DNA of 64,000 nucleotides from Acidimicrobiia bacterium (lineage in GTDB: Bacteria > Actinomycetota > Acidimicrobiia > Spongiisociales > Spongiisociaceae), in the NCBI GenBank assembly GCA_011523635.1, contig WTGI01000009.1, positions 16,781 to 80,780 of the forward strand, given 5' to 3'. Below, piece by piece: positions 14,650 to 22,574 of the stretch (within the stretch, counting starts at the first letter, position 1; each line of letters starts with the position of its first letter). The translations under genes and the position numbers were made by a program. Below the pieces are notes generated by a model. It did not search any database. It saw only the letters and a program-made list of their open reading frames with translations, and was not told the origin of the DNA.

Positions 14650-15495
14650 ATGCGCGTCGGGGTGAACATTTTCCTCACCGAATACTCGATCCAGCCGGTC
14701 CAGCTGGGGGAGGAGTTGGAGGCTCGGGGGTACGAGTCGCTCTGGGTGGCGGAGCACAGCCACATCCCGACCAGCCGGGTCACTCCTTGGGGTGGGCGGA
14801 AGAATGCCCCGCCGCTGCCGAAGGAGTACTGGTACACCTACGACTCGTTCGTGGCGCTGGCCGCGATCGCAGCGACCACCGATCGGCTGAAGGTCGGCAC
14901 GGGCATCGCCCTGGTGGCGCAACGGGATCCGATCTGGCTGGCCAAGGAGGTGGCGTCGCTGGACATCATCTCCGAAGGACGGTTCGAGTTCGGGATCGGG
15001 TTCGGCTGGAACCGGGAGGAGATGGCGAGCCACGGCATCGAGTCTCGGACCAGGCACAGGCTGGTCCGGGAGAAAGTCGCCCTGATGAAGGCTCTGTGGA
15101 CTCAGGACCTGGTCTCCTACGAGGGAGAGATGATCAGCCTGGAGGAGAGTTGGGCGTGGCCCAAGCCCTACCAGAAGCCGCATCCCCCCATCGTGATGGG
15201 AAGCGGAGGAGGCCCCATGGCCCTGGCGGCGGTGGCCGAATACTGCGACGGCTGGATGCCGGTGCACCCGCAGAACCTGGCCGGCGACATCGCCACCTTG
15301 CACGGCCTGCTGGAGCAGGCCGGGAGGGATCCGTCGGAGGTTGACATCGGCGTCTACGGCAGCCAGCCGGATCCTGAGCTGTGGAAGGAGTACAAAGCCT
15401 TGGGGGTGTCCCGGGTGACAATCTTCCTACCTCCCGCGCCCGCTGACGTCGTGGTGCCCCTACTCGATCAGCATCGTCACCTGGTCGACAACTAG
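14650..15495 (+). CDS. LLM-class (luciferase-like) F420-dependent oxidoreductase
   Basis: TIM-barrel LLM pattern (VGTGIALVAQRDPIWLAKEVASLDIISEGRFEFGIGFGW) and a mycobacterial-type F420 LLM family C-terminal region. Confidence 0.65.
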   Translation: MRVGVNIFLTEYSIQPVQLGEELEARGYESLWVAEHSHIPTSRVTPWGGRKNAPPLPKEYWYTYDSFVALAAIAATTDRLKVGTGIALVAQRDPIWLAKEVASLDIISEGRFEFGIGFGWNREEMASHGIESRTRHRLVREKVALMKALWTQDLVSYEGEMISLEESWAWPKPYQKPHPPIVMGSGGGPMALAAVAEYCDGWMPVHPQNLAGDIATLHGLLEQAGRDPSEVDIGVYGSQPDPELWKEYKALGVSRVTIFLPPAPADVVVPLLDQHRHLVDN

Positions 15496-15668
15496 CACCC
15501 CGCCCTGCCCGGCCGGCCATTGCGGCCATGGGTGAAGAGCCCTGGGTTCCGGGTGCCTGCTCTGGGACGCGCCTCCCGGATGGCGCCGGTCGACTCGCTC
15601 CGGGCCGGGGCAACCGGATGAAGCGGGTACGATGTCGCGATTGCGAGCGAGCCGGCGAGGATGCGTAG

Positions 15669-15944
15669 GTGAGTTACCAGGGTTACGTACGTGTCATCGG
15701 CGAGGGCGGGAACATCCTGGACGTGGCCGAGGTGTCTTTGGGTGAGATCGACCATCCGGGCCACCGCTGGGGTGGCACCATGACCGTGTGGAGTGGGGGC
15801 GCGCTCGACGGCAAGACCATGATGGTCGATCTGGAGGTCCCCGGTTCCTTCCGGGCGCCCGCCCTGATCCTTCCGGGCCCGGTATCGGGTAGGCAGCGCC
15901 AGATGTCGGTGCTGGGTAGCGGGGACTCGCCCTTCGCCGGCTGA
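15669..15944 (+). CDS. hypothetical small protein
   Basis: 91-aa ORF with coding-like GC3. No motif recognised. Confidence 0.3.
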   Translation: MSYQGYVRVIGEGGNILDVAEVSLGEIDHPGHRWGGTMTVWSGGALDGKTMMVDLEVPGSFRAPALILPGPVSGRQRQMSVLGSGDSPFAG

Positions 15945-15956
15945 ACCTTTACAGCT

Positions 15957-16457
15957 TCAGGGCAGGATCCAGGCCTCCGAGCCGTCGCCCGAAGCCGCCG
16001 CGGCCAGGTTGCGGACGCTGTTGATCACCGCTCCGAGGAGGGCAAGGACCAGGGCGGCATAGATAACCAGGACGGAAAGGATCGGAAGCGAACTCACCAG
16101 GGAAGGAACCGTGGTGGCGGCCGTGTAGAGGATGACCAGCGTGGACCAGGTCATGATCACCGCAACGATGAAGAAGACCGGCTTCGAAGCCCCCTCCGAC
16201 CGACCGATCCCCTTGTATATCAGGGGCGCCAGCACCGCCAGAATCCCGAAGGCGAGCATGGTGGCCTGCGCCCCCGCCCCCAGCAGCACCAGGACCAGGG
16301 CCAGCACCACCGCGATGCTCGAAGACCAGCTTGCGGAGAAGGACCACTGCAGCGGGCCGACCGTGCCCGACCATCCGTCCTGGGAATCGCGCACGGCCGC
16401 GTATGCGATCAGGAGTGCCACCAGGCCGATGGCAATGATCATCGTTTGCGGGTTCAT
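15957..16457 (-). CDS. hypothetical integral membrane protein (4-5 TM)
   Basis: Multiple hydrophobic helices (IIAIGLVALLIAYAAV, IAVVLALVLVLLGAGA, FFIVAVIMTWSTLVILY). The start is probably MNPQTMII. Confidence 0.5.
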   Translation of the reverse strand: MNPQTMIIAIGLVALLIAYAAVRDSQDGWSGTVGPLQWSFSASWSSSIAVVLALVLVLLGAGAQATMLAFGILAVLAPLIYKGIGRSEGASKPVFFIVAVIMTWSTLVILYTAATTVPSLVSSLPILSVLVIYAALVLALLGAVINSVRNLAAAASGDGSEAWILP

Positions 16458-16627
16458 GTGCTCCTCCCGTTCGTTCTGCCAGGCCCGCCAGGAGGGGATG
16501 CTCATCTCTCGCTGGCCGCGGGCTTGTGTTCCGTCCCTTGGTAGTTAGGACTCTACGGTACGCGTGGGCGTTTCACGAGTAGATTCCGCCGCGGACGACC
16601 CGGCCGTTGAGCGATCGGAGGTGCCGG

Positions 16628-16746
16628 TTGAGGTTTGCCGAGGTGGTTGCTACGTCGCGGAAGATCGCGGGCACGAGGGCGCGCCGCGCCAAGGTAGCCG
16701 GTCTGGCCGATCTCCTCGCTCGGGCGGAGCCCGAAGAGATACGGAT
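16628..16746 (+). pseudogene. 5' fragment (about 40 codons) of an ATP-dependent DNA ligase (LigB-like), separated from the rest of the gene by an IS insertion
   Basis: TTG start with a GGAGG RBS. It encodes MRFAEVVATSRKIAGTRARRAKVAGLADLLARAEPEEIR, a LigB N-terminus. The frame resumes exactly at 19866 after the element (EEIR|ILVGFLSGRP). Confidence 0.7.
16739..16746. repeat. 8-bp target-site duplication, left copy (ATACGGAT)
   Basis: Identical 8-mer at 19866..19873, immediately outside the other inverted repeat. Confidence 0.8.
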
Positions 16747-16768
16747 GGGAATTATACGCTTGACTTGA
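16747..16768. repeat. left terminal inverted repeat of the IS1595-family element
   Basis: GGGAATTATACGCTTGACTTGA. Similarity extends a few nt further inward. Confidence 0.8.
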
Positions 16769-16783
16769 AGCGGAGCGGGGTAT

Positions 16784-16960
16784 CAGTCGAGGAGTGCTTC
16801 AGCGGCAGCGTCTAGGAACTCGATGTCATGCTGGTAGGCCGCGATTATCCGCTGGGCGTCGTCGGGCGTGATGAACGTGTTGGTGAGGTCTGAGACCAAC
16901 CGATCGGTCCGTCCCTGCTTCAGGGCTTCAACGTCGGGGGTTGGCTGTTCGTCTGTCATT
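16784..16960 (-). CDS. hypothetical small protein (58 aa) inside the transposon
   Basis: Not in the track because it is under 60 aa. ATG preceded by an AGGAGGGA RBS. MTDEQPTPDVEALKQGRTDRLVSDLTNTFITPDDAQRIIAAYQHDIEFLDAAAEALLD. Confidence 0.3.
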
Positions 16961-17093
16961 CTGGTCCCTCCTGGTGAGTGGTGGCTTCCCGATCAGCGCT
17001 CTGGCTACGTCGATGGGTGTGGCACCCCGATAGGCCGGGTTCTCCGCCGGTGTGTGTGACCACTCATCGACCTTCGCCCGGCGGGTTTCGTCC

Positions 17094-17366
17094 TTAGACA
17101 CCGGCGCCGCCTTCTAGGTCCTGGACCCGAACGGTCAGGTCCGATACCGCGTCGATAAGCGCGGTGACGCCGGACTTGACGAAAGTCATGTCGTTCTCCA
17201 ACCCGTCGAGCCGTCCGTCCATTATGTCGAGTCTGCCGTCTATCCCGTCGAGCCTGCCGTTGATCCTGCCGATATCGCCCTTGATGACACCAAGGTCGTT
17301 CAGGATCACCGAGAACGCGGTCTCGATGTCGAACCCCTTGGGTTGACGGCGCGGCAGCGCGGCCAT
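17094..17366 (-). CDS. small coiled-coil protein with DGxxGRLD heptad-like repeats (passenger gene)
   Basis: The 90-aa version starts at MAALPRRQ with a GGAAGGAA RBS. Repeats are GRINGRLDGIDGRLDIMDGRLDGLEND. It loosely resembles XhlA-like phage coiled-coil proteins. Confidence 0.45.
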   Translation of the reverse strand: MAALPRRQPKGFDIETAFSVILNDLGVIKGDIGRINGRLDGIDGRLDIMDGRLDGLENDMTFVKSGVTALIDAVSDLTVRVQDLEGGAGV

Positions 17367-17449
17367 CTTGGTTCCTTCCAGATTGGACTGACTCGATCCT
17401 AACTCTACCAGCCGGGCGACAACCGTTGTCACGATCCGGTACGCTGGGC

Positions 17450-17567
17450 GTTGCCACCGACAACCCAGGAATCCCGCACCCGTGAGGGACCTGTACCGCA
17501 TGGTCCCTTCGGTCGGTTACGGGTTCCTGTGTCGGTGGCAACGGTACAGACCCCAACCGAAGGGACC
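17450..17567 (+). promoter_or_regulatory. structured 5' leader with RBS-sequestering alternative pairing upstream of the small membrane protein / SLH protein genes
   Basis: 13-bp perfect outer stem GTTGCCACCGACA...TGTCGGTGGCAAC and inner stem GAGGGACC..GGTCCCTTC. The segment GGTCCCTTCGG is also perfectly complementary to CCGAAGGGACC, which contains the GAAGGGA RBS 6 nt before the ATG at 17573. Confidence 0.45.
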
Positions 17568-17572
17568 ACCAC

Positions 17573-17896
17573 ATGGCCGACGATCTTGTACTTGAGGGGC
17601 AACCCGCCGCCCAGCCACCCATTCAGGCCGCCCCGAGCACCCGCGGTATCTTCTACGTGCTGGTCGGAATCCTGATCGTCCTCGCGGGCATTCTGTACTT
17701 CGTAGCTGACCAGGCTCTAGTCAACCCCATCAAACTGAAACAGGACTATTGCGTAGAGAGCGACGGCCAGGTCGTCTGGTCCACCGGCGGCGGCCTGATA
17801 TGCGACCAGAGACCCCTCCAGTCAATCGGTGAGAGCTTCGGCCAGAACGATTGGGTCATCATGGACGGCGCCTCGGCTAACCCCTTCGGCGGGTAG
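17573..17896 (+). CDS. small single-pass membrane protein (passenger gene)
   Basis: 107 aa. TM is GIFYVLVGILIVLAGILYFV. The C-terminal ectodomain has two Cys. Confidence 0.45.
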   Translation: MADDLVLEGQPAAQPPIQAAPSTRGIFYVLVGILIVLAGILYFVADQALVNPIKLKQDYCVESDGQVVWSTGGGLICDQRPLQSIGESFGQNDWVIMDGASANPFGG

Positions 17897-17899
17897 ACC

Positions 17900-18553
17900 A
17901 TGAGAACCAAACAAGTCACAGCCATTGCGTTGGTGCTAGTCCTGGCGGGCGGGTTGTCGGTGTGGGCACAGGCGTCCCGGTTTTCCGACGTACCAGACAG
18001 TCACCCCCAAGCGCACGATATCGAACACGCCGCCGAGCAGGGCTGGTTCGCCGGGTTCGTGGATGGCACGTTCCGACCAGACCAGACCATCTCAGCGGAG
18101 AACGCTCTGAGGGTGTTCAACCGGGCATTCCCCGAAGGTGTCACCCGTGCCGACCTCTCTACGTTCCTGCGGGCTGGGGCCAACCAGTTGGCCACCATCC
18201 ACCATGACGGATATTGGGGCTGCGTGAATGTCACCGATCAGGCCGCCGAACTGTCCGGTGGCGTAGTCGAGTCGATGGTCTTGCAGACCCTCTGCTACCT
18301 GAGAGTCGAACAGCAAATACGCAACGGGCAGGTGTGGGTTATCGCCCGCATCCAGACGCTCACCGACTGCCCGCGAGGCTGGGAGTTGGTGGTGCGCCTA
18401 TCGCCCGGTGAAGGCCTCGCCCCGTCCAGAACGTTAGGAACGGGGTACTCACCGAAGGCGTGGGCCGGTGATGTCCTGGTGGTTGGTGTCCCGTCGAACA
18501 TGGACCGATGGGAAACCCTCGACGTCACATCCGACTGCCACCAGCCCTGGTAA
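17900..18553 (+). CDS. secreted SLH (S-layer homology) domain protein (passenger gene)
   Basis: Signal peptide MRTKQVTAIALVLVLAGGLSVWAQA. SLH motif FSDVPDSHPQAHDIEHAAEQGWFAGFVDGTFRPDQTISAENALRVFNRAF. Cys-containing C-terminal domain of about 140 aa with unknown function. Confidence 0.6.
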   Translation: MRTKQVTAIALVLVLAGGLSVWAQASRFSDVPDSHPQAHDIEHAAEQGWFAGFVDGTFRPDQTISAENALRVFNRAFPEGVTRADLSTFLRAGANQLATIHHDGYWGCVNVTDQAAELSGGVVESMVLQTLCYLRVEQQIRNGQVWVIARIQTLTDCPRGWELVVRLSPGEGLAPSRTLGTGYSPKAWAGDVLVVGVPSNMDRWETLDVTSDCHQPW

Positions 18554-18560
18554 GGGGCTC

Positions 18561-18815
18561 CTATCGACAGAGCCGTTCAAGGGCGTCGTGTCCCTGCCAC
18601 GTCAGCCGCCCGAGGCGGGCATAACGCAGACCACCGCCCGATACGGCGATGGGTTTGCTGGCTTCGAGGTATCCGGCCTGTTCGCACAGGTGGACGTGGT
18701 AGTGAACCTGATCCGTGTCGTACCCGTCGATCTCGGGCACCGCACGCCCGGCAAGAGTGGGGGCCGATTCCGCGTACCGGAGAATCTCGCAGATGAGTTC
18801 CATGACTCGGGACAT
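18561..18815 (-). CDS. DUF2513 family protein (phage-associated small protein)
   Basis: 84 aa. MELICEILRYAE...IDGYDTDQVHYHVHLCEQAGYLEA...GGGLRYARLGRLTWQGHDALERL matches the DUF2513 pattern. Confidence 0.45.
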   Translation of the reverse strand: MSRVMELICEILRYAESAPTLAGRAVPEIDGYDTDQVHYHVHLCEQAGYLEASKPIAVSGGGLRYARLGRLTWQGHDALERLCR

Positions 18816-18828
18816 GCGTCGAAGCCTA

Positions 18829-19833
18829 CTAGGTGGCTAGGGAACTCTGCCCGGTGTCTGCGATCAGGTCTCGGTACATGAGACGGCGTCCGACCATCGC
18901 GGCAACTACGTGCTGCATCTGCGCGAGGGTGTCCCACTCGCGGATGTTCTGACGGCCTGCGAACACGTCGACGTACCGCTGTAGGTGCTTGGGGGAGAGC
19001 CGGTGGTAGACGCCTTTGTGGGCTCGTTTGAGCATCGACCAGAAGGATTCGACTCCGTTGGTGTGAACCATGTCCCTCACGTACTCGCCGACCGAGTGGT
19101 GGACAGCTTCACGGTTGGGGAGGCCGTCGTAGGCGGTTGACCCGTCCGTGTAGACCGGGGCGTTAGGGACGCGGTGTTCTTCGACGAATCCCTGGAGGGT
19201 GCAGGCCGTGGTGTTGGGCACGACTCGGGCGACGACTTGGCCGGTGGTGCGGTCCTTCATACCGACCACGGCGGTCTTACCGACCGGCCCGCGGCCGAGG
19301 TTCTGACGCTTGGAGCGGTGCTTGTTGCGCTCCAGACCGCCCACGTAGGTCTCGTCGACTTCGACCGGCCCCTCGAACAACGGGGCGATACCGGCGAACG
19401 CTTCCCGTATCCGATGGAGCATGAACCAGGCCGTAGCCTGCCGGACTCCGAGGTCACGGTGCAGCTTCATGGAGGACACGCCTTTGAGGCTGGTGAGCTC
19501 GAGGTAGATCGCCCACGCCCACATACGGAGCGGGAGCTTGGAGTCTTCCATGGCGGTGCCGGTCTTCAACGAGAAGTAGCGGCGGCACGTCCGGCAGCGG
19601 TACGGCATCGGCTTGGCGGACTTGACGCGGTAGGCGTCGTCCGATCCGCAGCGCAGGCACGCTATCTCACCGGTCGGCCAGTGGATGGCCTCGAACCAAT
19701 CGACGGCGTGCTGTTCGGTGGCGAACAACTCCGTCATCTGGAGGACGCTGATACCCTCGCGGTGTGCCTTGCCGGGGGCCTTTTGGCTTGCTCTGACAGT
19801 TGTGGTGCTCATGCCTGTATTCTCGCAGGTCAC
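18829..19833 (-). CDS. IS1595 family transposase (ISXO2-like DDE domain plus N-terminal zinc ribbon)
   Basis: CLRCGSDDAYRV...YRCRTCRRYFS zinc ribbon. ISXO2-like core VDETYVGG...KTAVVGMKDR...YTDGSTAY...HTNGVESFWSMLKR. It starts 32 nt inside the right inverted repeat. Confidence 0.85.
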   Translation of the reverse strand: MTCENTGMSTTTVRASQKAPGKAHREGISVLQMTELFATEQHAVDWFEAIHWPTGEIACLRCGSDDAYRVKSAKPMPYRCRTCRRYFSLKTGTAMEDSKLPLRMWAWAIYLELTSLKGVSSMKLHRDLGVRQATAWFMLHRIREAFAGIAPLFEGPVEVDETYVGGLERNKHRSKRQNLGRGPVGKTAVVGMKDRTTGQVVARVVPNTTACTLQGFVEEHRVPNAPVYTDGSTAYDGLPNREAVHHSVGEYVRDMVHTNGVESFWSMLKRAHKGVYHRLSPKHLQRYVDVFAGRQNIREWDTLAQMQHVVAAMVGRRLMYRDLIADTGQSSLAT

Positions 19834-21272
19834 GCCCGGTTTGTCAAGTCAAGCGTATAATCCCCATACGGATCCTGGTCGGCTTCCTCTCCGGCCGGCC
19901 GCGGCAGGGACGTGTTGGCGTGGGCCCGGCCGCGCTGTGGGCTTCGAAGGTCGATCCCGTGCCGGAACCGATCCTCGACATCACGGAGGTAGATCGGGTG
20001 ATCGGCACGATCCCGGGTATCACGGGTTCCGGTTCCCAGGCTCGCCGGACCGACCTGCTCGAGTTCCTGCTCGGTAGGGCCACCTCTGACGAGCAGGACT
20101 ACCTGCGGCGGCTGCTGACCGGAGAACTGCGGCACGGCGCGCTCGAGGGCCTGATGATGGACGCGGTGGCGGTGGCGTCGGGAATCGATGCGGCAGTGGT
20201 GAGGCGGGCCGCCATGCTCGGGGGTGACCTCGGATCGATCGCCGTTCCGGCCCTCACGGAGGGAGCGGAGGCTCTGCAGGCGATGCGCATCGTTCCGTTG
20301 CGGCCGGTCCGGCCGATGCTGGCCTCGACCTCCGCGTCGGCCGCGGATGCGATGGAGTCGTCCGGGCGGGCATCGGTGGAGTGGAAGCTCGACGGCGTCC
20401 GCATCCAGGCGCACCGGTCCGGTTCGCAGGTGGCGGTGTTCAGCCGGCGGCTCAACGACGTCACCGACCGGCTGCCGCTGGTGGCCGAGGTGGTGTCCGG
20501 CCTTCCCGTCTCGAGCGTGGTGCTCGACGGGGAGGTGCTGGCTCATGATCTCGAGGGCCGGCCGGAGCGCTTCGAGCAGATCATGAGCCACTTCGGCACC
20601 CATGAGGAGGGCGGCAGGAAACCGCTGTACCCGCACTTCTTCGACATCCTGCATCTCGACGGCGAGGATCTGATCGACCTTCCCCTCGGACGGCGCATCG
20701 CCGTGCTCGAGGACCTGGTCCCGAGCGAGTGTCTGGTTCCCAGGCTGGTCACCGACCGGGTCGCGGAAGCCGAGGGTGCCTTGTCGGAAGCCCGCCGGAG
20801 CCGCCACGAGGGGATCATGGTCAAGGCGATCGGCTCGACCTACCAGGCGGGCCGGAGGGGGTCGGCCTGGCTCAAGGTCAAGCCGGCCTATCACCTCGAC
20901 CTGGTGGTGCTGGCCGCCGAATGGGGCCACGGGCGCCGGACCGGGCGGCTCTCCAACCTGCACCTGGGTGCCCGGGACGCCGAGAGCGACCGGTTCGTGA
21001 TGGTGGGCAAGACCTTCAAGGGCCTGACCGATGCGATGCTGGCCTGGCAGACCGAGCGGTTCCTGGAGATCGCGGTCCGAAGGGAACGCCATGTCGTGTT
21101 CCTGCAGCCCGAGGTGGTGGTGGAGGTGGCCTTCGACGGGGTTCAGTCGAGCCCGGTGTATCCGGGCGGGGTAGCGCTCCGTTTCGCCCGCGTCAAGCAG
21201 TACCGGCCCGACAAGCCGCCCGTTCAGGCCGACACCATCCAGCGGATCCAGCGGATATTCGAGGAACGCTGA
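19800..21272 (+). CDS. ATP-dependent DNA ligase (LigB-like), 3' portion after the IS insertion point
   Basis: EWKLDGVR (KxDG adenylation motif), then the OB domain and C-terminal LKVKPAYHLDLVV. The track ORF begins at an ATG inside the transposon right end (19800). Native codons resume at 19866 (IRILVGFLSGRPRQ, compare mycobacterial LigB). Confidence 0.75.
   Translation: MWCSCLYSRRSRPVCQVKRIIPIRILVGFLSGRPRQGRVGVGPAALWASKVDPVPEPILDITEVDRVIGTIPGITGSGSQARRTDLLEFLLGRATSDEQDYLRRLLTGELRHGALEGLMMDAVAVASGIDAAVVRRAAMLGGDLGSIAVPALTEGAEALQAMRIVPLRPVRPMLASTSASAADAMESSGRASVEWKLDGVRIQAHRSGSQVAVFSRRLNDVTDRLPLVAEVVSGLPVSSVVLDGEVLAHDLEGRPERFEQIMSHFGTHEEGGRKPLYPHFFDILHLDGEDLIDLPLGRRIAVLEDLVPSECLVPRLVTDRVAEAEGALSEARRSRHEGIMVKAIGSTYQAGRRGSAWLKVKPAYHLDLVVLAAEWGHGRRTGRLSNLHLGARDAESDRFVMVGKTFKGLTDAMLAWQTERFLEIAVRRERHVVFLQPEVVVEVAFDGVQSSPVYPGGVALRFARVKQYRPDKPPVQADTIQRIQRIFEER
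19844..19865. repeat. right terminal inverted repeat of the IS1595-family element
   Basis: TCAAGTCAAGCGTATAATCCCC is the reverse complement of GGGGATTATACGCTTGACTTGA. Confidence 0.8.
19866..19873. repeat. 8-bp target-site duplication, right copy (ATACGGAT)
   Basis: Identical to 16739..16746. Confidence 0.8.
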
Positions 21273-21281
21273 GGGTGACGG

Positions 21282-22574
21282 CTATCGATGGATGCCGTAG
21301 GGGTCCGTGTCGGCGGGTTCGGCCATCGAGATCAGCAGGGCGCTCACCAGGACCACCTGGGCTAGCAGCGCCGCGCATCCGGCCAGGATCAGCCCGAGCG
21401 TGGCGGGGATGCGTACCAGTACGGGGATGACTGCTCCAACTACCCAGGCGAGTTGGAAGAGGGTCTCCGAATAGGTGAAGGTCCGGCCCCGTTCCTCGGG
21501 CCTGACGCTGGCGTGGAGGAGGCCGTCGTATCCGAACTTGGCCGTTCCCCAGGCCAGCCCGGCGAAGAACGCCACGGCCGCGGCCGACCACACGCCGAAC
21601 ACATGGGCGCTGATGAACGCCGCGGCCGCCTCCAGGGCCAGGGCCGCCACCACCATCGGTTCCTCGCGAAGGCGTCGAGCCAGGAACTGCGCCAGCAGCG
21701 ACGCCACGCCGAATCCGGCGCCGGCGGCGAGCAGCAGGCTGCCGAATCCCACTATTCCCGCTTCGTTGTCCCGGAACACAAAGGCCACCAGGAGGAGGAG
21801 GTAGCCGTTCAGTAGGCGGACGATGGCGGTGGCTATGCGGGCGTGGCGGACCGCCCGCCGGGACGCGGGGGACCGGGCGGCATGCACCGCCTCCGCGCCC
21901 GGATCCCGGGCGGCCGGCCGCAGGTCTACTCGCAGACCCAGAGCGGAGACGCCCGACCAGGCGAAGACAACGGCTGCCAGCACGAGGGCGGCTGTGCTTC
22001 CCACCAGATTGATGGCTCCCAGCCCGATCGGGAGGACTGCGCCGCCGGCGAGGATTCCGAGCCGGGCGAGGCGGGCGTTGGCCTCCACCAGATCGGCCGG
22101 ATTCGGTAGCGCGGTGGGCAGGATGGAGCTACGGCTGATCCCGTAGATCCGGGACAGCACCAGGATCCCGAACACCATCGACAGCATCACGAGGTCGGTT
22201 TCCGCTCGCATCATGGCGACCACCAGCACCACCCGCCCGAGCGATCCGAAGGCTAGGCCGGCCCGGTGGCTGCGGGGTAGCCGATGGACCAGCGAGCCGA
22301 GGAGGGGTCCGATCACGGCGAAGGGGGCCAGGGTGAGGAGCAGGAACGCGACCACGTTGCCGCGAGCCTCGGTGGTGGGCACCGAGAAGAAGAGCGTGTC
22401 GGCGAGGGCCAGGGCCACCAGGGCGTCTCCGGTCACGTTGGTGGCGTGGGAGATGGCCAGCCGCCGGAAGGCCCAGCCATGTCGTGAGAACTGTTCCTCG
22501 ATCTTGCGGCCCACGGCCCGGGTGGCGCGGGAAATCTTCGAGGGTGGCCGGGGCGGCGGAGAGGCAGAGCTCAT
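21282..22574 (-). CDS. MFS transporter
   Basis: 430 aa with about 12 TM segments and an MFS-like layout. Confidence 0.65.
   Translation of the reverse strand: MSSASPPPRPPSKISRATRAVGRKIEEQFSRHGWAFRRLAISHATNVTGDALVALALADTLFFSVPTTEARGNVVAFLLLTLAPFAVIGPLLGSLVHRLPRSHRAGLAFGSLGRVVLVVAMMRAETDLVMLSMVFGILVLSRIYGISRSSILPTALPNPADLVEANARLARLGILAGGAVLPIGLGAINLVGSTAALVLAAVVFAWSGVSALGLRVDLRPAARDPGAEAVHAARSPASRRAVRHARIATAIVRLLNGYLLLLVAFVFRDNEAGIVGFGSLLLAAGAGFGVASLLAQFLARRLREEPMVVAALALEAAAAFISAHVFGVWSAAAVAFFAGLAWGTAKFGYDGLLHASVRPEERGRTFTYSETLFQLAWVVGAVIPVLVRIPATLGLILAGCAALLAQVVLVSALLISMAEPADTDPYGIHR

Follow-up and report, generated by a model that had tools for sequence, protein, structure and literature searches.

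The main finding of this work was the identification of a passenger-carrying insertion element in the DNA of an Acidimicrobiia bacterium, within a stretch of 64,000 nucleotides of contig WTGI01000009.1 (the window). The region very probably represents an IS1595-family transporter insertion sequence (tIS) with ISNwi1-type ends (GGGAATTAT), in which a layered cargo lies beside the core machinery. A tIS is an IS-like structure holding, inside its repeats, passenger genes unrelated to transposition (10.1101/2021.05.26.445724; PMC3129680), and the class is documented for IS1595 (10.1101/2021.05.26.445724; PMC11891212; PMC3129680). In the element described here, the repeats enclose five passenger ORFs, and the target-site duplication is outside these (Table 1).

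Table 1. Features of the element and of the interrupted gene (window positions).
Feature	Position	Strand	Description
ATP-dependent DNA ligase gene, 5' fragment	16607..16746	+	~46 codons; includes left target duplication
Target-site duplication, left copy	16739-16746	.	ATACGGAT, 8 bp
IRL, left terminal inverted repeat	16747-16768	+	Transposase-distal; GGGAATTATACGCTTGACTTGA
orf58	16783..16959	-	Acidic 58-aa ORF between conserved small gene and IRL
Small IS-core gene	16928..17101	-	57 aa, GTG start; motif W-x2-TP-x2-NP-x-Y-x-GATP-x-DV-x-RALL
cc90	17094..17366	-	Coiled-coil protein of 90 aa with heptad repeats; DGRLDxI encoded by three 21-nt DNA repeats
Extended hairpin	17501..17568	+	Inverted repeat, 5' leader of mem107-SLH operon; conserved in L098 and L094
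mem107	17573..17896	+	Predicted bitopic membrane protein (sequence reading): one TM helix, ~65-aa outer domain with 2 Cys
SLH217	17900..18553	+	Secreted protein: signal peptide, one SLH repeat, helical linker, C-terminal 4-Cys beta-sandwich
DUF2513 protein	18561..18815	-	84 aa; starts 13 nt past transposase stop, same strand
DDE transposase, IS1595 family	18829..19812	-	327 aa; Pfam DDE_Tnp_IS1595 and Zn_ribbon_IS1595
Promoter-like site	19819..19847	-	TTGACA-17-(TG)GAGAAT, consensus match only; reads into transposase gene
IRR, right terminal inverted repeat	19844-19865	-	Transposase-proximal
Target-site duplication, right copy	19866-19873	.	ATACGGAT, 8 bp, perfect match
ATP-dependent DNA ligase gene, 3' part	19874..21272	+	Pfam DNA_ligase_A_N/M/C on reconstructed protein

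Boundaries, insertion site and transposase

The element measures 3119 bp (16747-19865) and its 22-bp terminal inverted repeats match at 21 of 22 positions, a match for which shuffled sequence gives an expectation of 0. Both ends read GGG(A/G)ATTATACGC, and the repeat seen in IRL also flanks relatives from many phyla. No third repeat-like site was found inside or near the element, even with up to 8 of 22 mismatches allowed. Since the duplication lies outside the cargo, no repeat lies within and both ends are common to the relatives, the data support movement of this passenger-carrying element as one 3.1-kb unit. The sequence-only reading had proposed just such an IS1595-family element with passengers, which the ends, the duplication and the transposase confirm; the roughly 2 kb that it placed between the left repeat and the transposase gene was measured as ~2.06 kb (16769-18828, from IRL to the transposase stop). 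All five cargo ORFs that it listed exist, the first being one base off, and a sixth was missed. That sixth ORF, which lies in the segment presumed to be cargo and was likewise overlooked by gene callers, belongs to the IS core, the other five being passengers.

The 3119-bp unit interrupts a LigB-type ATP-dependent DNA ligase gene at codon 46/47. When the element and one repeat copy are removed in silico, a continuous 512-aa ligase ORF is regained, whose N-terminal 150 aa align with actinobacterial ligase genes in single pieces that run through the junction; PDB ligases match at 1e-89. The insertion deprives the ligase of its first 46 codons and is very probably fixed in the population of the high-GC and presumably sponge-associated host. 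The element is known at a single site, all 14-16 contigs with its proteins representing the same locus, and an unoccupied site was not encountered. For these two reasons it is unproven that the element still moves, and its present competence for transposition is putative.

This transposase is, judged by its sequence, intact. It matches PF12762 (DDE_Tnp_IS1595; 2.7e-38, 131.8 bits against a cut-off of 27), PF12760 (the N-terminal Zn ribbon; 27.7 bits against 25.4) and NF033547 (NCBIfam transpos_IS1595; 1.4e-54, 185 bits against 75), and an alignment with six relatives showed the catalytic residues D153, D223, E255 and K262, together with the Zn-ribbon residues C52, C55, C73 and C76, to be invariant. 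The DDE domain, zinc ribbon, inverted repeats and 8-bp duplication expected of the IS1595 family are all present. Full-length identity of the transposase reaches 69% at the most similar genome locus, and plasmid and genome matches are annotated only as "IS1595 family transposase". An alternative GTG start at 19833 would give a protein of 334 aa. The gene is probably transcribed from the promoter-like site, whose -35 hexamer falls within IRR, and the enzyme would act on both repeats, moving all the DNA between them and making the 8-bp target duplication.

A conserved small gene and five passengers

By tblastn, the small gene was located beside the distal repeat of L044 (72% identity, 9e-14), L019, L060, L030, L021 and L020. 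Its conservation in the closest relatives, at the end away from the transposase, places it in the core and not in the cargo. Variation falls at codon position 3 in 33 of 34 columns, and at positions 1 and 2 in 21 and 14; with a pN/pS of 0.21-0.50, this codon pattern demonstrates a gene evolving under purifying selection. In a set of 1.84 billion representatives, 28 clusters match the 57-aa protein (E<=1e-3), almost all of them 50-90 aa long; Pfam and PDB gave no match.

Among the passengers, the mem107-SLH217 two-gene operon would constitute an older cargo module, common to two sister elements, L094 and L098. SLH217 carries a Pfam SLH match (PF00395, residues 27-65; 24.9 bits against a cut-off of 20.8, 2e-5), and only 7 full-length homologues were found among 5.8 billion clusters. 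Proteins of this type usually hold three tandem SLH repeats that form a wall-polymer-binding unit, whereas Pfam finds one in SLH217. As in the SLH cell-wall-anchored proteins of Gram-positive bacteria, an N-terminal signal peptide precedes an SLH motif above the Pfam threshold; SLH217 differs from these in its single repeat, its small size (217 aa) and its rare Cys-containing beta-sandwich. In the AF2 model the C-terminal strands reach a pLDDT of 74-90, and residues 1-100, which include the SLH part, stay below 55; Foldseek returned only generic Ig/Fn3-like matches for the C-terminal domain. Judged by substitution rates, the mem107/SLH217 pair evolves under purifying selection, with a dN/dS of 0.23-0.31 for SLH217 and of 0.29 for mem107, the latter at saturated dS. 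Both products probably sit in the cell envelope, in agreement with the envelope-directed cargo proposed from the sequence: SLH217 by its signal peptide, SLH motif and Cys-containing beta-sandwich, and mem107 as a bitopic protein.

Ahead of the operon, a conserved hairpin spans the ribosome-binding site and would gate translation; its 3' arm includes a Shine-Dalgarno-like GAAGGGA 7 nt upstream of the ATG at 17573. The same fold was predicted in this element, L098 and L094 (-37, -40 and -32 kcal/mol), with z-scores that are modest (-1.9, -2.3 and -1.3) and come from n=3 sequences. No Rfam match was found for it.

The DUF2513 protein, cc90 and orf58, by comparison with related sequences, appear as copy-specific additions. 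The DUF2513 protein matches Pfam PF10711 over 78 of 84 residues (50.8 bits against a cut-off of 29.6, 2.2e-13), so that this gene call of the sequence-only reading, like those of the SLH gene and the transposase, holds above the Pfam cut-off. Its AF2 model (pLDDT 80.8, pTM 0.74) has a winged-helix fold, for which most of the top PDB fold matches are regulators of the MarR/PadR winged-helix type (TM 0.5-0.64, E>=0.013), and the protein may therefore be a DNA-binding regulator, its gene apparently co-transcribed with that of the transposase. For cc90 all matches were sub-threshold: DUF7310 as the best in Pfam (17.8 bits against a cut-off of 40), phrog_5553 (8.8e-5) and the trimeric coiled coils of P22 gp26 and reovirus sigma-1 (3e-4 to 1e-3). 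The earlier label of XhlA-like had to be dropped, since cc90 does not match PF10779 and no match reached a family threshold. A C-terminal membrane anchor was sought in cc90 and no hydrophobic segment was visible in the sequence. Among the cc90 matches, the XhlA annotation occurs only on distant heptad-repeat proteins.

The remaining ORF, orf58, forms a singleton cluster with no family match, is called by gene callers in all metagenome copies, and is either a copy-specific passenger or spurious. Codon-position GC is 0.68/0.39/0.73 in orf58, typical of coding sequence, and 0.65/0.38/0.81 in cc90; since homologues of the two are only compositional, the case for them as real genes comes from this measure and from the gene callers. 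All ORFs of the element are intact with a coding GC pattern, all cargo proteins are singleton 90% clusters, and the functions given here for every passenger are predictions.

Related elements and their cargo

Relatives at 75 genome loci have the same repeats and 8-bp duplications. GGGRATTATACGC ends with perfect 8-bp duplications bracket elements of 1.46-7.3 kb in Gemmatimonadota, Alphaproteobacteria, Chloroflexota, Saccharibacteria and other MAGs, most of the delimitable ones measuring 2.4-7.3 kb. About 20 distinct delimitable elements hold 1-5 kb of cargo, mostly DNA methyltransferase or restriction genes, the types including methyltransferase/nuclease fusions, BglII, type I-like M/S, SH3, metallopeptidase and others. 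Passengers are thus normal in the clade and not unusual, as had been supposed, and the check proposed earlier on the constancy of the cargo gave a negative answer, this passenger set being found in 0 of the 75 loci. Four copies at different sites in one alphaproteobacterial MAG (L033-L036) hold the same MTase-HNH cargo, from which it follows that cargo-bearing units of the clade transpose whole. Occurrence of unit and cargo at more than one site, as expected of a tIS, is therefore seen in these relatives and not in the exact element.

The sister elements L019, L020, L033-L036, L094 and L098 share with the present one the repeat consensus, the 8-bp duplications and the order transposase, cargo, small ORF, repeat; L019, L020 and L033-L036 differ in their restriction-modification-type (MTase-nuclease) cargo. 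L094 and L098, which use the repeat variant GGGAATTATATACGTGAGT, have in common with this element the SLH gene and its leader hairpin, and one of them also has the membrane protein. In L094, an SLH homologue of ~72% identity over the 193 aa aligned by tblastn is followed on the opposite strand by a 72%-identical transposase, with an IRL-like end at ~3572; DUF2513, mem107 and cc90 are absent. L098 has an IRL-like end, a homologue of mem107 at the same position (2e-10) and an SLH homologue (63%), and lacks cc90 and orf58.

Alternative readings and class assignment

It is exceedingly improbable that the left repeat is coincidental or a solo copy, with the IS proper confined to the transposase-proximal ~1.1-1.4 kb and the "cargo" being ordinary neighbouring chromosome. 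Among the closest relatives there are indeed elements of 1.46 kb that carry no cargo (L022-24, L042) and one deletion derivative of 1.0 kb (L044). However, the full 3119 bp is bracketed by the 8-bp duplication and the two ligase halves, no repeat-like site separates cargo from transposase even at 8 of 22 mismatches, the conserved small gene lies beyond the cargo and adjoins IRL as in the relatives, and GC is 0.61-0.64 over the entire 3.1 kb against 0.65-0.72 in the flanks. A coincidental left repeat is refuted by these observations. A possible, though rather doubtful, explanation is that the passengers are hitch-hiking chromosomal genes, captured by chance and with no role tied to the element, kept only as it has neither moved nor decayed since, the relevant effect being the ligase knock-out. 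The single known locus, the singleton clusters of the cargo proteins, the entirely different cargo of related elements, the lack of detectable relatives of cc90 and orf58 and the loss of the first 46 ligase codons are consistent with it. Against this, all ORFs are intact with a coding GC pattern, and three elements, with transposases now as little as 72% identical, retain the SLH gene and its leader; such retention, with the low dN/dS of 0.23-0.31, argues for selection on the passenger while linked to the IS.

The idea of a phage-interaction module is speculative, and we consider it unlikely that the cargo acts in superinfection exclusion, with SLH217 and mem107 blocking adsorption or injection, DUF2513 as regulator and the tIS spreading the defence. 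The mostly restriction-modification genes of sister tIS elements make defence cargo typical for the vehicle, two cargo products appear extracytoplasmic, and the SLH gene is under purifying selection in three diverged elements; PHROG profiles match DUF2513 (6.5e-8) and cc90 (8.8e-5), but the matching families are of unknown function. These weak matches are all that speaks for the phage origin suggested earlier: tblastn found no matches of DUF2513 or cc90 in 50,697 GenBank phage genomes and only weak SLH-motif matches of SLH217, with no homologue of its C-terminal domain, and IMG/VR held no homologues of DUF2513, cc90 or that domain. PADLOC defence models gave no relevant match to the cargo at E<=0.1, the lone hit being a spurious 13-bit REase_II match. 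The fold matches of SLH217 are generic Ig-like domains, and a 41%-identical chromosomal homologue (L095) lies next to an fn3 protein and away from any IS1595, which suggests that SLH217 came from an ordinary surface-protein family that was captured.

Returning to the tIS assignment, IS1595-family tIS of the ISNwi1 group with passenger genes were reportedly described by Siguier, Gagnevin and Chandler in 2009 and in ISfinder/TnCentral. Placement of the element in this subgroup follows from what we take to be the ISfinder end consensus, GGnnATTAT, which its ends fit. ISNwi1 elements with passengers measure 1.75-4.75 kb, a range that includes the 3.1 kb found here, and ISNha5 elements measure 3.45-7.9 kb and have ends CGGnnTT. 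Like the ISNwi1-group tIS, the element encodes one DDE transposase that bears the IS1595 Zn ribbon, is flanked by an 8-bp duplication and has passengers inside its repeats, whereas its passenger set (DUF2513, membrane, SLH, coiled coil, orf58) is absent from the 75 related loci. ISNha5-type tIS of the IS1595 family carry transcription regulators (PMC11891212), and here too a regulator-like passenger, the DUF2513 winged helix, rides with the transposase, but the regulator family is different and the ends are GGGAATTAT.

The core machinery would comprise the DDE transposase with its N-terminal zinc ribbon, the two 22-bp repeats and the conserved 57-aa protein, and the variable cargo of the clade would be placed between the genes for the transposase and the small protein. 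The cargo may have been built up in layers, the DUF2513 winged-helix protein, cc90 and orf58 being added in this copy to the older mem107-SLH217 module. The element is a new member of a known tIS class, and its passengers, although their function is unproven, are new.

Boundaries and insertion site of the element

The element is an IS1595-family transporter insertion sequence (tIS) that ends in a left (transposase-distal, IRL) and a right (transposase-proximal, IRR) terminal inverted repeat and is flanked by an 8-bp direct repeat. Shuffled sequence gave zero matches of terminal-repeat quality, and the repeat search reports 31-nt arms because the flanking 8-bp repeat is partly self-complementary. 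Removal in silico of the element and one 8-bp copy fused 16607-16746 to 19874-21272 in a single 512-aa ORF that carries the N, adenylation and OB domains of ATP-dependent DNA ligases; its residues 1-150 align unbroken with ligase regions on replicons of Nonomuraea, Nocardia, Tsukamurella and Kitasatospora. Since the ligase ORF is restored and its N-terminus aligned without a break, the 3.1 kb entered as one unit, at codon 46/47 of a LigB-type ligase gene. This insertion as one unit, together with the absence of any further repeat-like site in or near the element at a tolerance of up to 8/22 mismatches, leads us to reject a coincidental solo repeat as explanation of the IRL. An origin as prophage or genomic island was also rejected, as no integrase or att site is present here and the boundaries are those of IS repeats. 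The passenger-carrying IS1595 element proposed in the sequence-only reading of this DNA is thus supported by the repeats, the 8-bp duplication and the inclusion of transposase and passengers in a single inserted unit. GC content is 0.61-0.64 within the element vs. 0.65-0.72 outside. Gene callers annotate a ligase starting 3' of the insertion, and this truncated protein, lacking the first ~60 residues, may still be expressed.

The window holds one copy of the element. All contigs with these proteins (ENA BPAM22-1 assemblies, JGI 33000330xx, Logan SRR106949xx) show the same insertion, and look-ups of the exact SLH, DUF2513 and flanking 91-aa proteins revealed no other insertion site and no empty site. 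The cargo proteins present in the collection each form a singleton 90% cluster, and cc90 is absent as exact sequence. In the nine copies compared, which include two strain variants (L002 and L005) with flanks diverged by 1.6-3.4%, the element is 100% identical (3119/3119). The identical tract extends over ~1.1 kb per side, up to SNP-dense blocks; it may have arisen as the insertion allele spread by recombination, or as a product of mosaic metagenome assembly.

Features of the element, its surroundings and the leader hairpins of two sister elements (L094, L098)
Feature	Position	Strand	Description
SNP-dense blocks	15000-15607; 20969-21500
Identical tract	15608-20968		element and flanks
8-bp direct repeat	16739-16746; 19866-19873		ATACGGAT
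Element	16747-19865		3119 bp
IRL	16747-16768		GGGAATTATACGCTTGACTTGA, 22 nt
IRR	19844-19865		inverted copy of IRL, one mismatch
orf58	16783..16959	-	GC pattern of coding type, without relatives
Small distal gene (orf57)	16928..17101	-	57 aa, GTG start, conserved
cc90	17094..17366	-	heptad coiled coil on three 21-nt DNA repeats
Leader hairpin	17501-17568	+	predicted
Leader hairpin, L098	366-434		predicted
Leader hairpin, L094	4151-4214		predicted
mem107	17573..17896	+	bitopic membrane protein, first gene of operon
SLH217	17900..18553	+	secreted, one SLH repeat (24.9 bits vs. cut-off 20.8), second gene of operon
DUF2513 protein	18561..18815	-	Pfam 50.8 bits vs. cut-off 29.6
Transposase	18829..19812	-	DDE_Tnp_IS1595 2.7e-38, Zn_ribbon_IS1595, NCBIfam transpos_IS1595 1.4e-54
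Region with the annotated ligase	19800-21272	+	450-451 aa

Transposase, passenger genes and related elements

The transposase retains the invariant D153, D223, E255 and K262 and four zinc-ribbon cysteines, and a promoter-like TTGACA-17-GAGAAT, recognized by consensus match alone, lies 5' of its gene with the -35 hexamer within the IRR. Also on the minus strand, the DUF2513 gene starts 13 nt past the transposase stop codon; the single-sequence AF2 model of its product is a winged helix (pLDDT 80.8), and most of the top-ranking PDB structures are MarR/PadR-type regulators, at TM 0.5-0.64 with E-values that are not significant. The C-terminal four-cysteine domain of SLH217 was modelled by AF2 as a beta-sandwich (pLDDT 74-90), for which the fold search gave generic Ig/Fn3-like matches only; no PDB match reached E<=1e-3. 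NCBIfam profiles matched none of the cargo proteins, and the XhlA-like label given earlier to cc90 was not demonstrable, all its matches being sub-threshold or compositional. A toxin-antitoxin reading of the small ORFs was rejected, since the sole match, to Tox-HDC, is sub-threshold (15.9 bits vs. cut-off 21).

Transporter ISs are a published concept in the IS1595 family (10.1101/2021.05.26.445724; PMC11891212; PMC3129680), which passenger carriage in this clade fits. A transposase scan of the genome collection yielded 75 loci (L-numbers denote loci with copies or relatives of the transposase or of the SLH protein); the best full-length match has 69% identity, and a deleted copy reaches 83%. 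These are mostly marine MAGs of many phyla (at least eight), some in sponge-associated taxa by name, and relatives occur in Longimicrobiales, Ca. Palauibacter, Latescibacterota, Acidobacteriota, Alphaproteobacteria, Caldilineaceae, Rhodothermales and Saccharibacteria. Relatives share the conserved GGGRATTATACGC ends, and those that could be delimited, most with perfect 8-bp duplications, measure 1.46-7.3 kb. Their cargo includes N6_N4 methyltransferases fused to Mrr or HNH nucleases (L019, L020, L033-36), a BglII endonuclease (L040), an N6 methylase with or without S subunit (L046, L058, L086), a nested IS3 (L021), an SH3 secreted protein (L059), a Replic_Relax protein, a metallopeptidase and membrane proteins (L066/69), and several secreted or membrane proteins of no named family. 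In one genome, copies with identical MTase-HNH cargo occupy four different sites (L033-36). Passenger carriage is therefore the rule in this clade. The cargo did not stay constant, a point which the sequence-only reading, in calling the passenger set unusual, had proposed to check: 0/75 related loci contain any of the window's cargo proteins, and the set found here is not a fixed module.

Two of the MTase-HNH copies, L033 and L035 (alphaproteobacterial MAG, OZ219786/OZ219787), have reciprocally swapped 8-bp flanks, CATTACTG/AATCCGAA vs. AATCCGAA/CATTACTG, a signature of rearrangement by inter-copy recombination; L034 and L036 retain perfect duplications. With 83% identity over 163 aa, L044 (257-1263, MAG APA_bin_98) is the closest transposase relative; an internal deletion has left it with 1007 bp, in which the two repeats, the small distal gene and the N-terminal part of the transposase are retained, and it is presumably non-autonomous.

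The cargo had also been suggested as a possible envelope or phage-interaction module, on the view that DUF2513 and XhlA-like coiled-coil proteins are typically phage-borne. The SLH, DUF2513 and cc90 proteins have no homologues in GenBank phages and IMG/VR beyond the SLH motif, and a PADLOC search of the cargo gave no relevant match. IMG/VR contained two transposase matches at 44% identity, and PHROG profiles gave matches to phrog_585 (6.5e-8) and phrog_5553 (8.8e-5), both families of unknown function. What stands of the proposal is indirect: a defence-related role can be argued solely because sister tISs mostly carry restriction-modification genes, and the evidence for a phage or defence link of the cargo is weak.

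A conserved small gene at the distal end

Between cc90 and orf58, overlapping both gene ends in another frame, lies a small distal gene that is absent from the gene list of the sequence-only reading and from metagenome gene-caller output. In the closest relatives (L044, L019, L060, L030, L021 and L020), tblastn located it immediately next to the transposase-distal repeat, on the inner side; the L044 match has 72% identity over 36 aa (9e-14). Across six elements, 33/34 columns at codon position 3 are variable, compared with 21 and 14 at positions 1 and 2, and pN/pS is 0.21-0.50; what is conserved is thus a protein and not just a site in the DNA. Searched exhaustively with phmmer, 1.84 billion representatives yielded 28 clusters with E<=1e-3; almost all are of 50-90 aa, and they share the motif W-x2-TP-x2-NP-x-Y-x-GATP-x-DV-x-RALL. 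In many of these proteins the C-terminus is VK(S/T)xV, which is the translated terminal repeat, with the stop codon within the repeat's TATAA. Pfam and PDB searches with the family gave no match.

The cargo-free 1.46-kb relatives (L022-24, L042) consist of the transposase gene and the small distal gene, and in cargo-bearing relatives the cargo is placed between these two genes. From its conservation by the distal repeat and its presence in cargo-free relatives, the small gene belongs, in this subclade, to the core of the IS; its product may be, as a guess, a small DNA-binding accessory or regulatory factor. The mechanism by which IS1595-type elements transpose is, to our knowledge, poorly studied, and the product of this gene is a concrete candidate for one of its accessory factors.

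The SLH/membrane operon in sister elements

SLH217 has just 12 relatives among 5.8 billion clusters, 7/12 of them full-length, and the only full-length one with a taxon name belongs to Ca. Spongiisocius; this relative and the high GC content point to a sponge-associated Acidimicrobiia as the probable host. Two are located in the sister elements L094 and L098. In L094, an IRL-like end (GGGGAATTATATACGTGAGT) is followed by two small minus-strand ORFs, the conserved leader, an SLH homologue (~72% identity over the aligned region) and, on the opposite strand, an IS1595 transposase (72% identical), with no DUF2513 between the last two. BLASTP revealed no similarity of orf58 and orf57 to the positionally equivalent L094 ORFs, which were counted as positional analogues only. 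L098 combines the same repeat variant with homologues of the membrane protein and of SLH217, the latter 63% identical. The membrane gene is gone from L094, where the hairpin and a 15-codon remnant ORF are left. A tyrosine integrase (Arm-DNA-bind_3/Phage_integrase; L094 2114-3271) lies ~300 bp outside the IRL-like end, and this sister element may have inserted into another integrative element or close to one.

The 80 nt 5' of the operon are 78-85% identical among the three elements, and all three leaders are predicted to form the same extended hairpin, with a GAAGGGA ribosome-binding sequence in its 3' arm and an inner stem whose sequence differs among the copies while pairing is maintained. 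An Rfam search of the element, leader hairpin included, gave no match. From these comparisons we infer that the recurrent SLH/membrane operon is probably hairpin-gated. The SLH gene (dN/dS 0.23-0.31) and the leader are kept in the sister elements, which marks the SLH module as an older, selected passenger in the sub-lineage and DUF2513, cc90 and orf58 as later, copy-specific additions. With no IS1595 alongside, a 41%-identical SLH217 homologue (L095) is found beside an fn3 protein in a chromosomal variable region of ordinary kind. A metagenome scan with the SLH alignment gave 6 distant loci only, matching mainly the N-terminal SLH region.

Taken together, the element is a cleanly delimited multi-gene insertion sequence at the IS/transposon border, and the passenger slot of its clade is in routine use, mostly for restriction-modification genes, in many phyla of the same kind of habitat. 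A far-reaching interpretation would make it a tIS of a cross-phylum clade that circulates among marine MAGs, whose names in several cases point to sponge association, and that serves as a carrier of defence and cell-surface genes, with the 50-70-aa distal protein as an undescribed accessory transposition factor and the hairpin-gated membrane/SLH pair as a new mobile surface module altering phage or host (sponge) recognition; we consider it unlikely that this whole picture holds. Within the set of papers searched, none linked IS1595 with sponge symbionts. None of these findings overturns current understanding. What goes beyond routine is the conserved small distal gene and the recurrent, putatively hairpin-gated operon; for uncultured sponge-associated Actinomycetota, its SLH/membrane pair offers a small candidate, open to testing, for mobile variation of the cell surface.
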